In this document: one piece after another, positions 53,523 through 59,037 of the stretch | Layout of the letters: every line of letters starts with the position of its first letter | Numbering within the stretch: the first letter of the stretch is position 1 | From: Alphaproteobacteria bacterium | GTDB lineage: Bacteria > Pseudomonadota > Alphaproteobacteria > UBA6615 | Assembly (NCBI GenBank): GCA_965267185.1 | Contig: OZ253937.1 | Location: 327,030 to 391,029 of the forward strand | Direction of reading: 5' to 3' | DNA: 64,000 bases | Program-made: the position numbers and the translations under genes | The notes under the pieces: model-generated | What the model was told of the DNA's origin: nothing | Database searches by the model: none | The model's input: the letters and a program-made list of their open reading frames with translations, nothing else

Positions 53523-54122
53523 TTAACTGCCCTGGCGATTCGAGAGCAGGGTATCGAACGTCGTCGAGTTTTTCTTTAGACGATGTGGCACGGCGCCACT
53601 CGATAAATCGAATAGATCGCTCGAGCGAACCTCGACGACGTTGGCCGCATATTCGCCTAGATGCCGGCATTGCACTTTCCCGCCCCGTTCGCCGGTTACC
53701 TTATTGATGCTGTCCGAGGGATATTTGAAGCAGACGCCATAGCCTTTGCCATCGTTTCGAGGCACCAATCGCCACTTGGAGGGGACTGCGGCAGCATTGC
53801 CCGGATACCAGAGATAGGCATTGCCGGTGTCGGAGAAATACTCGATCTGTGTGCCGTGGCCGGGCCGACGCTGGCAGCTCGTCACCGTATAGCAAATCGT
53901 CTGGCCGGGATCGTAGGTCATGATCGTCTTATCGGCGATAAATGCGCGCGCTTCCTCGTGCGGCATCGCGTTGATTTCGCTGATCTCCCGCCCCAACGTG
54001 GAGACATTGTTGTAAACGCTCGGCGAACACGCCGCCAACCCAAGCGCCAACGCGCAAACAACGGCCCGCGGAACTTTTCTGAAAGTGGCGCAAGCAGACG
54101 ACGTTAATACCGCAATATTCAT
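53523..54122 (-). CDS. Hypothetical lipoprotein
   Basis: Lipobox LAAC; HGTQIEY....AYLWYPGN, CF.YP, four further Cys. Confidence 0.7.
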   Translation of the reverse strand: MNIAVLTSSACATFRKVPRAVVCALALGLAACSPSVYNNVSTLGREISEINAMPHEEARAFIADKTIMTYDPGQTICYTVTSCQRRPGHGTQIEYFSDTGNAYLWYPGNAAAVPSKWRLVPRNDGKGYGVCFKYPSDSINKVTGERGGKVQCRHLGEYAANVVEVRSSDLFDLSSGAVPHRLKKNSTTFDTLLSNRQGS

Positions 54123-54237: not shown

Positions 54238-54266
54238 TTGCCTTCATTTCCGTTCGGCGCTATACA
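54238..54266 (+). promoter_or_regulatory. Sigma-70-type promoter upstream of cysS leader
   Basis: TTGCCT-17 nt-TATACA; expected start site falls at about the ATG at 54275. Confidence 0.6.
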
Positions 54267-54274
54267 GCGTCCTT

Positions 54275-54328
54275 ATGGAGATACGTTCCCATCGATGTTG
54301 CGCGGCCAGCCGGCGAATTACCGGCTGA
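54275..54328 (+). CDS. Putative leaderless Cys-Cys leader peptide (MEIRSHRCCAASRRITG)
   Basis: 17 codons with tandem TGT TGC, 67 nt upstream of cysS; 3' part overlaps hairpin CAGCCGG-N7-CCGGCTG. Confidence 0.6.
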   Translation: MEIRSHRCCAASRRITG

Positions 54329-54395
54329 AGACGTTGCCGCTGCGCGGATTTCCCGCGCCGCTTCGTCCGCGCAATCTGATCTTGGGAACCCCTAA

Positions 54396-55745
54396 ATGAC
54401 GCTCCAACTCCACAATACGCTGACCCGCTCGAAAGAGGTTTTCACGCCGCTCGATGAGAGCCGTGTGCGCATGTACGTCTGCGGGCCGACGGTCTATGAC
54501 GACGTGCATATCGGCAATGCCCGGCCGCTCGTGGTGTTCGACGTGCTCTACCGGCTGCTCAAACATAGCTACCCGGACGCCAAGGTCAGCTATGTGCGCA
54601 ACATCACCGACGTGGACGACAAGATCATCGACCGGGCGGCTGAGAGCGGTGAGGCGATCGACGATCTGACCCGGCGCACCACCGACCGTTTCCACGAAGC
54701 GACAGCGGCGCTGGGCTGCCTGGAGCCCGATGTGGAGCCGCGGGCGACCGACCACATTCCGGAAATGATTTCCCTGATCGGTACCTTGATCGAGAAAGAC
54801 CACGCCTACGAAGCCGAAGGCGAGGTTTTGTTCAGCGTGCCGTCGATGGCGAACTACGGAAAGCTATCGGGGCGCAACCGCGACGAGATGATCGCCGGTG
54901 CCCGTGTCGAGGTATCGAGCCACAAGCGCGATCCCGCCGATTTCATTTTGTGGAAGCCGAGCACGGCGGACCAGCCCGGCTGGGACAGCCCGTGGGGCCG
55001 CGGCCGGCCCGGCTGGCACATCGAATGCTCGGCCATGAGCGAGAAACATTTGGGCAAGGCGTTCGACATCCATGGCGGCGGGGTCGATCTGGTGTTTCCC
55101 CATCATGAAAACGAGATTGCTCAGTCGCTGTGCGCCCATCCGGACGAGACCTTCGCGCAAACGTGGGTACATAACGGTTATCTGATGAGCGAAGGCGAGA
55201 AGATGTCGAAGTCGCTCGGCAACTTTTACACCGTCATCGAACTGCTCGACGAGTTTCCCGGCGAGGCCCTGCGCTTGGCGCTACTCAAAACCCACTACCG
55301 CCAACCGCTGGACTTCACCAAAGAGGGCGTGCGCGAAGCCAAGCGGGAGTTGGACGGGTTCTATGGCGCGCTGCGCGTTGCGGGAAAAGAGAGTTCCGGC
55401 GACGTGGCGGCTTCGGTGCTGGACGCCCTGGCGGATGATTTGAATTCGCCGGCCGCGCTGGCCGAACTGCATGTATTGTTGAGGGGCGTGAACGCGGGCA
55501 ACACCGACGCAGCAGAACTGCGTTCCGCAGGCGCAATCCTCGGGCTGCTTCAGCAGGATGCTGACGCGTGGTTCCACGGCGTAGATGATGGGGCAGCCGA
55601 GATCGAGGCCTCGATTGCGGCCCGCAACGACGCCCGCGCGGCGAAAGACTTCGCAGAGGCCGACCGCATCCGCGACGAACTGGCGGCGCAAGGCATCGCG
55701 CTCGAAGACGGGCCAGATGGCACCACGTGGCGGCGGGACGGGTAG
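54396..55745 (+). CDS. cysS: Cysteine--tRNA ligase
   Basis: YVCGPTVYD..HIGN, GRPGWHIECSAM, DIHGGG.DL.FPHHENE, KMSKSLGN. Confidence 0.97.
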   Translation: MTLQLHNTLTRSKEVFTPLDESRVRMYVCGPTVYDDVHIGNARPLVVFDVLYRLLKHSYPDAKVSYVRNITDVDDKIIDRAAESGEAIDDLTRRTTDRFHEATAALGCLEPDVEPRATDHIPEMISLIGTLIEKDHAYEAEGEVLFSVPSMANYGKLSGRNRDEMIAGARVEVSSHKRDPADFILWKPSTADQPGWDSPWGRGRPGWHIECSAMSEKHLGKAFDIHGGGVDLVFPHHENEIAQSLCAHPDETFAQTWVHNGYLMSEGEKMSKSLGNFYTVIELLDEFPGEALRLALLKTHYRQPLDFTKEGVREAKRELDGFYGALRVAGKESSGDVAASVLDALADDLNSPAALAELHVLLRGVNAGNTDAAELRSAGAILGLLQQDADAWFHGVDDGAAEIEASIAARNDARAAKDFAEADRIRDELAAQGIALEDGPDGTTWRRDG

Positions 55746-55764: not shown

Positions 55765-55954
55765 CGTCACCCCCACCCCGACCCTCCCCCCTCAAGGGGG
55801 AGGGGGTTATAGCGAGCGGGCTGCTCCAAAATTCCCTCCCCCCTGGAGGGGGAGGGTTAGGGAGGGGGGGCTTTGCTCCCTCATCCGGAGCTTGTCGAAG
55901 GATGAGGGACGCAGGCTAAAGTCAGCCCCATACTTCGACAGGCTCAGCATGAGG
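55765..55954. repeat. Cluster of two REP doublets from different families between cysS and cimA
   Basis: CCCTCCCCC..GGGGGAGGG pair (55765-55870) followed by CCCTCATCCGGAGCTTGTCGAAGGATGAGGG / CATACTTCGACAGGCTCAGCATGAGG pair (55878-55954). Confidence 0.8.
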
Positions 55955-55988
55955 CTGTGTGTGCGGACCGTAACCCAGGCAGGTAGCC

Positions 55989-57584
55989 ATGCCTGAGCGG
56001 ATCAGCGTCTTCGACACCACTTTGCGCGACGGGGCGCAGACGCAGGGCGTCGATTTTTCGGTCGACGACAAGCGCACCATCGCCCGCGCCCTCGACGGCT
56101 TGAACGTCGACTATGTGGAAGGCGGCTGGCCCGGCGCTAACCCGGTCGACGACGATTTCTTCGCCACGTCGCCTAATCTCAATAACGCCACCTTCACTGC
56201 TTTCGGCATGACGCGGCGGCCCGACCACAGCGCCGCCAACGATCCCGGCCTGAATGCGTTGCTCACCAGCGCCGCCGACGCCGTGTGTATGGTCGGCAAG
56301 ACCTGGGATTTTCACGTCGATGTGGCGCTTGGCATCTCTCAAGACGAAAACATCGCCATGATCGCCGACAGCGTCGCTCACGCGAAAACCCGGGTGAACG
56401 AGGCGCTATTCGACGCGGAGCATTTCTTCGACGGCTATAAGGCCAACCCCGACTTTGCGCTAGCGTGCCTGAAAGCGGCGCTCGACGCCGGCGCGCGCTG
56501 GGTGGTGCTGTGCGATACAAACGGTGGCACCTTGCCCTACGAGGTGTCGCGCATCGTCGGCGAGGTGTGTGCGAAGCTGCCGGGCGACCATGTGGGCATC
56601 CACGCCCATGACGATACGGGCAACGCGGTGGCCAACACGCTGGCGGCGGTGGAAGCGGGGGCGCGGCAGATCCAGGGCACGCTCAACGGATTGGGCGAGC
56701 GCTGCGGCAACGCCAACCTCATTTCGGTGCTGCCTAACCTGATGCTGAAGTATGACGGCGCCTACGAGACCGGCCTGGGCGATGCCGAGCTGGCTCAGTT
56801 GACCCATGTGTCGCGCCTGCTCGATGAGCTGCTCAACCGCGCGCCCGACCGCCATGCCGCCTATGTCGGCGAGGCGGCCTTTGCGCATAAGGGCGGCCTA
56901 CACGTGTCGGCGGTGCAGAAAGACCCGCGCACCTACGAGCATGTCGAGCCCGGCATCGTCGGCAATCACCGCCACGTCGTGGTGTCAGACCAGGCCGGCC
57001 GGTCGAACATTCTGGTGCGGCTCGTCGACGCCGGCATCGAGATTGACGCCGGCGACAAGCGCATCTCGCGCCTGGTCGAGGACGTCAAGGCCAAGGAGTA
57101 TGAGGGCTATACCTACGATGGTGCGGAGGCCAGCTTCGAGTTGCTGGCGCGCCGGGCACTGGGGGAGGTACCGCGCTTCTTCGATGTGGAGAGCTTCCGC
57201 ACCGAGGTCGAGCGCCGGTTCAATGCCCGCGGCGAACTGACCACCATCAGCCAGGCGGTGATCAAGATCGAGGTCGCCGGCGAGCCGACCATGCAGGTGG
57301 CCGAAGGCAACGGCCCGGTCAACGCGCTCGACGCGGCGCTGCGCAAGGCGCTGCTGCCCAAGTTCCCCGAACTGGAGCAGATGCGCCTGGTGGACTTCAA
57401 AGTGCGTATTCTGACGCCGCAACAGGCCACCGCGGCGGTGACGCGGGTGATGATCGAATCCGCCGACGAGACCGGCCACCGCTGGGGCACCGTCGGCATC
57501 TCGCCCAACATCATCGATGCCGCCTACGCGGCGCTGGACGACGCCATCGTCTACAAACTCCTGCGGTCAGGCAACGGATCGTGA
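55989..57584 (+). CDS. cimA: Citramalate synthase
   Basis: [52 protein letters not shown]; typical cysS-cimA linkage. Confidence 0.92.
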
Positions 57585-58189: not shown

Positions 58190-58260
58190 AGGCCATCGAT
58201 AGAGGCATTATGCACCGCGCGGATGCGCAGTTTTCAATACGAAGCGCATTTTACCGGCTG

Positions 58261-59037
58261 ATGATTCGATCGCTGGTGACAGTCGCAATTTTGCTAGCAC
58301 CCGCAATAATCAGCGATTCCGTCGCGCAGACGGTTACCTACGAGAAGTTCTCGCAAGCATTTAGGGATATTGTGCTGGGTTCAGAATATGTGCCCCGAGA
58401 AAATCCACGTGTTCTCAAGTTCGTTGATGATCTAGATATCGTAATTGTAGGAACGCCAAGTAGCTCGTTTCTTTCCAAGCTGTTTCGACACCTTTCTGAA
58501 CTCGACAAGCTAACGGGTTTGAATTCCGATGTTAGCGCAATCGTGAACGCCAACGAGTTTTTTGCGCAACCTTCACGATTCCAATCGGGAAATATTTTCG
58601 CATTTATCTCTGAAAGCCGAAAAGAATACCTCGAGTTCTTGTCGTCACGTACTTTTAATGACGGGAGTTTTAGCGATAAATTCATACGCGAAAATGTTTT
58701 CTGCGTTGTCCGTATTGTTCCGAACCCGCGTCTACAGATTGGTTCAGCCTTTATCCTCTTTCCACCAAATAATATTCCCGGGAAAGATAATAGCCGGTGC
58801 GTGGTCGAGGAATTCTCGCAAGCGCTAGGGCTACCGAACGATTCGAAATCCATCAAAGAAACAATATTCAACGATGACGATGTTCATTCGGAGCTCACAG
58901 ATCTCGATGCTCTACTAATTCGTGCGTTATACTCAGACGATATCAAGCCGGGTGACAGTTGGAATGATCTGCGGCTGGTTCTTCCTGGCGTCTATCAACG
59001 TCTAACGTCAGTGAGTAGAGACACAATACGTCCATGA
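58261..59037 (+). CDS. DUF2927-like exported protein (AT-rich)
   Basis: C..EE..QALGLPNDS, IFNDD, LT.LD.LL...LY...IKPG; ORF open from 58210. Confidence 0.8.
   Translation: MIRSLVTVAILLAPAIISDSVAQTVTYEKFSQAFRDIVLGSEYVPRENPRVLKFVDDLDIVIVGTPSSSFLSKLFRHLSELDKLTGLNSDVSAIVNANEFFAQPSRFQSGNIFAFISESRKEYLEFLSSRTFNDGSFSDKFIRENVFCVVRIVPNPRLQIGSAFILFPPNNIPGKDNSRCVVEEFSQALGLPNDSKSIKETIFNDDDVHSELTDLDALLIRALYSDDIKPGDSWNDLRLVLPGVYQRLTSVSRDTIRP

Follow-up and report, generated by a model that had tools for sequence, protein, structure and literature searches.

[quoted passage not shown]

The cysteine--tRNA ligase gene cysS in the 64-kb stretch of DNA analysed here (the window) is preceded by a short leader that we read, with a probability of about 0.62, as a translational attenuator of cysS that senses cysteine through the ribosome and that probably acts on cimA as well, by polarity. 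The reading is based on a conserved promoter, reading frame, set of Cys codons and RNA complementarity, and on the absence of a terminator; from these we infer that the leader sORF is translated, that ribosomes stall on it and that stalling responds to cysteine. A cysteine-sensing Cys-Cys leader for cysS had been proposed in an earlier annotation made from the DNA letters alone (the sequence-only reading). In 28 distinct leaders, the conservation of frame, start, stop and Cys codons, together with a predicted helix between an anti-Shine-Dalgarno (anti-SD) segment and the cysS Shine-Dalgarno (SD) sequence, now lends support to that proposal. The features are collected in Table 1.

Table 1. Features of the cysS leader and the genes behind it, in window positions.
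Feature	Position	Strand	Remark
-35 hexamer TTGCCT	54238..54243	+	read directly; TTGC[CT][TA] at this position in all 28 distinct leaders
-10 hexamer TATACA	54261..54266	+	TATACA in 27/28 leaders, TATATA in 1
sORF MEIRSHRCCAASRRITG, 17 codons + UGA (54326-28)	54275..54328	+	putative leaderless start
anti-SD GUUCCCA, sORF codons 4-6, 5' arm of helix H1	54285..54291	+	paired with 54383-54389 in MFE and centroid structures
tandem Cys codons UGU UGC, codons 8-9, proposed stall site	54296..54301 (TGT 54296-98, TGC 54299-301)	+	
UUGCGCGG, Cys codons + 4 nt, 5' arm of helix H2	54298..54305	+	predicted to pair with CCGCGCAA
hairpin P1, CAGCCGG - CGAAUUA - CCGGCUG, overlapping the last sORF codons and stop	54307..54327 (arms 54307-13 / 54321-27)	+	perfect 7-bp
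GC-rich hairpin P2/P3, GACG...CGUC enclosing GCGCGG / CCGCGC (54342-47 / 54353-58)	54330..54367	+	predicted fold
CCGCGCAA, 3' arm of helix H2, directly 5' of the SD region	54367..54374	+	predicted pairing
UGGGAAC, cysS SD (GGGA 8 nt before AUG), 3' arm of helix H1	54383..54389	+	predicted pairing
cysS, cysteine--tRNA ligase, 449 aa, regulated gene (putative)	54396..55745	+	TIGR00435, E 6.7e-150
cimA, citramalate synthase, probably co-transcribed	55989..57584	+	TIGR00977, E 5.9e-196

The sequence-only reading had described a promoter TTGCCT-17-TATACA followed, after 8 nt, by an ATG without an SD and by tandem TGT TGC, and all of these elements were confirmed at their positions; the 8 nt between TATACA and the ATG at 54275 read gcgtcctt. 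The spacer between the two hexamers, 17 nt in the window, is exactly 17 nt in every one of the 28 distinct leaders. In all of them the sORF start codon lies 6-8 nt downstream of the -10 hexamer, and an SD-like motif occurs 5' of it in one leader only. The start is an ATG in 19 leaders and the GTG of a GTGATG in 9. Such a promoter-to-start geometry is what a leaderless mRNA requires, and it would place the transcription start at A54275 or within 1-2 nt, making the sORF start a putative leaderless one. A scan for E. coli-type promoters gave no match at the leader, since it accepts only a -10 hexamer ending in T. The leader sequence was found in DNA metagenome contigs only, and RNA runs under the same organism label gave no match.

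The same promoter, start, frame, Cys-Cys pair, stop and 3' stems recur upstream of cysS at 39 loci, which reduce to 28 distinct leaders encoding 24 distinct peptides. Every one of the 39 lies in a MAG or metagenome contig that carries the label Rhodospirillaceae or Alphaproteobacteria; many are of marine origin and all are uncultured. The leaders were gathered from CysS homologues, from two pattern scans of species-representative genomes and from one scan of metagenome contigs. An initial short DNA pattern matched mostly by chance (3 real among 119); CysS homologues at 70-74% identity were fetched without any DNA pattern, and 7 family members were recovered by CysS homology alone, independently of the pattern. 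In the closest CysS relatives within the protein collection searched (85% and 83% identity, on metagenome contigs) the leader is nearly identical base for base, and among the 28 distinct leaders it is kept down to about 68-70% CysS identity. Distant cysS loci in Reyranellaceae, Magnetospirillum, Nisaea and Dongia, at 60-63% CysS identity, have no such leader. Within the 64-kb window, a leader profile search found a single copy, the one before cysS. Against Rfam, cmscan at E up to 10 returned only two chance matches, on the minus strand, and no T-box, riboswitch or curated leader.

Short ORFs are common and the window copy has just two Cys codons, so that a chance ORF in a GC-rich 5' UTR, with no regulatory role, might be suspected. 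This explanation is effectively refuted, and we give it practically no weight: the arrangement is kept in 28 distinct leaders over the range of CysS identity given above.

The pattern of conservation is that of a reading frame. The frame, start and stop of the sORF are intact in 28/28 leaders, and its lengths of 54, 57, 63 or 69 nt are all multiples of three, whereas the stop and the cysS AUG are separated by 60-67 nt with no frame preserved; indels are multiples of three within the sORF and not so 3' of it. A check of relatives for the Cys codons and their frame, which the sequence-only reading had called for, was run and came out in its favour (Cys-Cys in 27/28, frame in 28/28). More precisely, Cys-Cys or CCC is present in all leaders except one (L001), which reads Cys-Phe and has one Cys only. 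The Cys residues stand at codons 8-10 across the family and number 1-5 per peptide, making up 16% of residues; the two Cys codons of the window would make a small sensor, a point against our reading. In the 20 leaders analysed for this, TGY triplets number 55 in frame vs 2 and 2 out of frame, and 16 vs 2 and 2 when the canonical pair is left out, counts that come from related sequences and are not independent events. Additional Cys residues have been gained at no fewer than five separate positions in different subfamilies, as in MINRSHRCCATACCTDGRITG, MIICSPRCCCRTHCGFGRITA, ...CCIACSRITG and METCSQRCC..., with the extra Cys in the contexts CCATACC, CCC, IAC and THC and at residue position 4.

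Synonymous changes, on the other hand, are two only (ACC to ACG and UGC to UGU, in L209/L242), and conservation at the nucleotide level is so strong that selection on codons can hardly be told apart from selection on the RNA. The leader could instead be an untranslated, structured cis-regulatory RNA, for example an operator for CysRS (thrS-like autoregulation through a GCA-containing element) or for another factor, with the ORF as a by-product. Besides the very high nucleotide-level conservation, this would suit an anticodon-like GCAA conserved directly 5' of the SD, and the invariant P1 loop CGAAUUAC, which is otherwise without explanation and for which a search by eye found no conserved pairing partner. 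An untranslated RNA does not, however, account for TGY enrichment that is specific to one frame, for extra in-frame Cys codons placed differently by subfamily, for indels of multiples of three inside the ORF only, or for a start codon fixed at the expected distance from transcription start; nor did the leader match any Rfam family. We consider it very unlikely.

The residues flanking the Cys pair speak to a third possibility, namely that the product of the sORF is a functional or arrest peptide (S-x-R-C-C ... R-I-T-G/A-stop) acting in the tunnel or as a small Cys peptide, which would sense free cysteine, redox state or a metal rather than Cys-tRNA charging. For a classical leader peptide the motif is conserved unusually well; both Arg positions are exclusively CGA, a slow Arg codon, across the family, and the base after the UGA stop is mostly C, which makes for weak termination. 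Against this, the variation at flanking residues is explained by RNA pairing. Ser is followed by H, Q, P or R, always encoded by CNN, which points to a constraint acting on the nucleotide and not on the amino acid, and the last residue (G, A or D) tracks the P1 arm. Among annotated small proteins no homologue was found, and the position before cysS points to tRNA-Cys charging. Consequently, a peptide-borne signal appears highly improbable to us. As a separate observation, the end of the sORF, CGA-AUU-ACC-GSC-UGA (54314-54328), is invariant in the family apart from the ACC to ACG change already mentioned.

How the sORF could be connected to cysS expression is suggested by the predicted RNA fold. 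In the window leader, the MFE and centroid structures coincide at -59.3 kcal/mol (z = -4.3 vs dinucleotide shuffles), and in this fold the closing stem of helices H1 and H2 encloses P1 and P2/P3. The anti-SD GUUCCCA is placed two codons before the Cys pair and forms a helix of 5-8 bp. Across the family, 27/28 MFE structures have the SD paired with UCCC at -9 to -6 relative to the first Cys codon, and in 23/28 leaders at least 4 pairs join the Cys-codon segment to the 28 nt immediately before the SD. H1 has at least 5 contiguous pairs in every leader except one with a weakened anti-SD (L234). At its flank, an A-U pair in the window's group is replaced by G.U in L224/L225 and by G-C in the L226 group, where His CAU changes to Arg CGU together with a U to C change before the SD. 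The arms of P1 also covary between subfamilies (GCCGG:CCGGC, GGCGG:CCGCC and GUCGG:CCGAC), with the last residue of the peptide changing to G, A or D accordingly. P2/P3 is retained by RNAalifold, with 3 pairs changed on both sides.

Pairs were counted on anchored segments, since the SD columns are 1-2 positions out of register between subfamilies in both MAFFT alignments. RNAalifold run on the MAFFT alignment had paired CAUCG with the cysS start, (C/U)GAUG, in place of anti-SD:SD; this alternative was rejected, and the CAUCG:CGAUG pairing is absent in the window.

The sequence-only reading had drawn attention to the perfect 7-bp hairpin CAGCCGG/CCGGCTG and to GCGCGG...CCGCGC stems before the cysS ATG at 54396. 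Both exist as described; the part given to the 7-bp hairpin as the key element needs revision, as the regulatory helix is more probably the one, overlooked then, that sORF codons 4-9 would form with the ribosome-binding region of cysS. Its report that a U-tract terminator is lacking was borne out by a terminator scan: there is no intrinsic U-tract terminator in the window, and P2/P3 has no U-run behind it. A T-run of four or more occurs in the sORF-cysS spacer of 1/28 leaders, where it is located between the SD and the AUG. The sequence-only reading had concluded from this that control would be Rho-dependent or translational, which is in line with the present results. With no terminator, translational attenuation is the best reading.

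The absence of an intrinsic terminator would also fit a leader in which the Cys sORF senses and the output is Rho-dependent termination, or a change in RNA stability or RNase access, in the leader or early cysS. The covarying GC-rich hairpin P3 could serve such a mechanism as a pause site for RNA polymerase, cimA downstream would be co-regulated by polarity, and the mycobacterial study discussed below treats polarity as a secondary effect (bioRxiv 10.1101/834739). However, a Rho mechanism has no need of the precisely placed anti-SD:SD complementarity found in 27/28 leaders, and the 60-67-nt spacer is mostly base-paired, with no C-rich, G-poor, rut-like tract evident in it. We regard this output as unlikely.

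For translational attenuation we propose the following sequence of events. Transcription would start at or next to the A of the ATG at 54275, and a leaderless ORF of 17 codons would open the mRNA. With Cys-tRNA(Cys) in good supply, the first ribosome would terminate at the UGA (54326-28) and the leader would fold, with H1 and H2 together closing a multi-branched structure that buries the cysS SD UGGGAAC, and cysS initiation would be low. When Cys-tRNA(Cys) is scarce, the ribosome would stall with UGU or UGC in the A site. The stalled footprint would then cover the anti-SD, 6-11 nt upstream on the exit side, as well as the Cys-codon arm of H2; the SD would remain single-stranded as it is transcribed, and cysS would be translated.

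The predicted effect of ribosome position was computed by modelling the ribosome as a 30-nt footprint forced unpaired and taking the probability that the SD is unpaired. In the window leader this probability is 0.00 for the free RNA and 0.26 with the footprint on the Cys codons. The mean is 0.02 for the free leader, 0.34 for a ribosome with a Cys codon in the A site, 0.02 for a ribosome at the stop codon and 0.06 for a ribosome at the conserved Ile codon; it is 0.23 for the control in which the upstream sequence was dinucleotide-shuffled. In the model, the SD is about ten times less exposed in the native leader than in random GC-rich sequence, and a Cys-stalled ribosome restores that baseline, raising the predicted accessibility of the SD only to about 0.3. 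Shuffling a GC-rich leader still leaves the SD paired about 77% of the time, and for the window leader 12% of the shuffled versions hide it no less tightly than the native one. The thermodynamic argument for any single sequence is therefore a modest one, and the case rests on the conserved position of the pairing partner, not on energy.

Two further candidates were considered. First, sensing of Ile on behalf of cimA finds no support here: ATH triplets have no frame bias (36 vs 31 vs 0), and a ribosome at the Ile codon leaves the SD hardly accessible, as the value above shows. Ile makes up 11% of sORF residues, and one AUU is invariant. Second, an out-of-frame ORF (54295-54399) runs from an internal AUG (MLRGQPANYRLK...) to a UGA overlapping the cysS start (AUGA / UGAUG). 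It is not a conserved coupled ORF and is probably a by-product; its equivalent reaches the cysS start in 12/20 leaders and is broken early in 8/20.

With regard to the locus, the gene order nadE-cysS-cimA is kept in relatives. Co-control of cimA with cysS by polarity is plausible, since the cysS-cimA gaps in relatives are just 3-138 nt. The corresponding gap in the window measures 243 nt and is full of REP-like palindromes (55770-55960), of the form CCCTCCCCCC-TCAA/TGGA-GGGGGAGGG and, for a second pair, ctcatccggagcttgtcgaaggatgagg / cttcgacaggctcagcatgagg. The same repeat families lie directly 5' of the cysS leader in some relatives (L082 at 240-330, L083 at 470-590, L164 and L224), and in relatives without them cysS and cimA are separated by 3-5 nt. 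Between nadE and cysS, on the minus strand and divergent from the leader, the window has an orphan 199-aa ORF (53523-54122) with no Pfam or NCBIfam match and a single relative, a 40% match in Tritonibacter mobilis; nadE and cysS are adjacent in relatives, so the ORF looks like an insertion. Farther downstream, 58210-59037 on the plus strand encodes a 275-aa protein with a DUF2927 domain (PF11150, 1.2e-27) and no NCBIfam name.

To our knowledge, cysteine-sensing leader peptides were thought to be absent until 2020, and experimental tests have been made on mycobacterial ones only. If our reading is right, the same design, comprising a leaderless sORF, Cys codons and SD sequestration, would have arisen in Alphaproteobacteria too, on the synthetase gene itself. 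Nothing is overturned by this: the family is new, but the kind of switch had been described before, and two earlier reports (PMC8632094, PMC4007540) make the element less novel than the sequence-only reading implies. It is further evidence that uORFs commonly control cysS across Alphaproteobacteria, through differing output mechanisms. The anatomy is unusually clean, with the anti-SD helix two codons before the stall site, and the proposal is testable with few point mutations. For annotators, the uncultured marine clade gains a small, putatively translated ORF and a well-defined promoter.

Among known systems, the classical leader-peptide attenuators (trpL, hisL, pheL and the pheM of pheST) and the translational attenuators ermC and cat share the principle that a short ORF is read and the position of the ribosome selects the RNA fold. 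The present leader resembles them in having cognate codons in the short ORF and, like ermC, in the predicted unmasking of a downstream SD. It differs from the trp/his type in that there is no terminator/antiterminator pair with a U-tract and in that its sORF would be leaderless, not SD-led. By analogy with ermC and cat, the stall would occur in a short ORF, but it would arise here from tRNA charging, not from an antibiotic.

Cys-containing short ORFs may be a recurrent solution for cysS. Among 79 proteobacterial loci, 12 have a Cys-Cys ORF of up to 35 aa on the sense strand in the 300 nt before cysS, vs 4 on the antisense strand and 3.5 expected from shuffles. Unrelated Cys-rich short ORFs were seen 30-200 nt upstream of cysS in Dongia sedimenti (L007), in Hyphomonas (L040 and L067) and at L014, L017, L002 and L035; their products include MTDCCCGCD in Dongia, ...ALCPACCCCR in Hyphomonas, ...SYRCTCCC, MTFIRHICCSICG, MLGCCPDC... 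and a peptide of 27 aa with 9 Cys. This distribution suggests that Cys leaders on cysS have had repeated independent origins. In another phylum, the cysS mRNA of Deinococcus deserti begins with a leaderless 10-aa peptide with 2 Cys, its transcription start being the start codon, and its authors proposed transcription attenuation (de Groot et al. 2014, PMC4007540); that peptide is shorter than the present ones.

The best mechanistic match is to the leaderless poly-Cys sORFs of mycobacteria (Ms5788A and others), shown experimentally to be translational attenuators in which the stalled ribosome blocks an SD-sequestering structure and no terminator takes part (Canestrari et al. 2020, bioRxiv 10.1101/834739). 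Consecutive in-frame Cys codons are common to both, as is the pairing of sORF RNA with the SD of the next gene, here a prediction seen in 27/28 MFE structures. The differences are several. First, the mycobacterial sORFs belong to Actinobacteria and control cysteine-metabolism operons (e.g. the cysA2 locus), not cysS. Second, the poly-Cys tract itself pairs with the SD there, whereas here a separate anti-SD lies two codons upstream and the Cys codons are predicted to pair just 5' of the SD. Third, there is no sequence relationship, and the present family has only 2-3 consecutive Cys.

The closest system by host and gene is uORFC-8-2 (Brewer et al. 2021, RNA Biol 18:2417, PMC8632094), which comprises 145 examples, only upstream of cysS in Rhodobacterales. 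Its tandem Cys lie at codons about 14-15, in the first stem, and the leader ends with an intrinsic terminator and a U-run; it was predicted to be a ribosome-mediated attenuator. The sequence-only reading had known of no experimentally described alphaproteobacterial example. A computationally described one existed in uORFC-8-2, which is itself a prediction. The two families are alike in being alphaproteobacterial tandem-Cys uORFs directly upstream of cysS for which the same logic of stalling at low Cys-tRNA is proposed. In the present family, in contrast, the Cys codons are at 8-10, no U-run is present and the output helix would sequester the SD; the hosts are labelled Rhodospirillaceae or unclassified Alphaproteobacteria, not Rhodobacterales. 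Leaders of the uORFC-8-2 type were seen at the Rhodobacterales cysS loci L037, L039, L044 and L076, and a nhmmer profile of the present family had no significant match to Rhodobacterales cysS loci (best L076, E = 1.5). Rfam 15 does not contain uORFC-8-2.

A point of contact between the two is the 12-mer ATTACCGGCTGA (I-T-G-stop), which is common to the 3' end of the window sORF and to the uORF MTTTCIICCCITG of the Rhodobacteraceae locus L076 (about 1380-1420), and which is possibly a trace of common ancestry or a functional element. Three of the uORFC-8-2-type leaders (L037, L044 and L076) end in ...CC-I-(I/T)-(R/G)-stop. One might tentatively imagine, as a doubtful possibility, that both families descend from one ancestral alphaproteobacterial cysS leader, that a terminator output was here replaced by the anti-SD:SD output, and that the CGA-AUU-ACC / UGA-C end is an additional functional element, for example through slow termination or a nascent-peptide effect. 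The shared sORF end ...I-T-G-stop and the leaderless appearance of both families would be consistent with this. If true, it would be a natural case of an attenuator that retained its sensor while switching its expression platform. Differing from uORFC-8-2 in terminator, Cys position and homology, the present family would, on our best reading of the predicted folds, act like the mycobacterial class on the very gene that uORFC-8-2 precedes.
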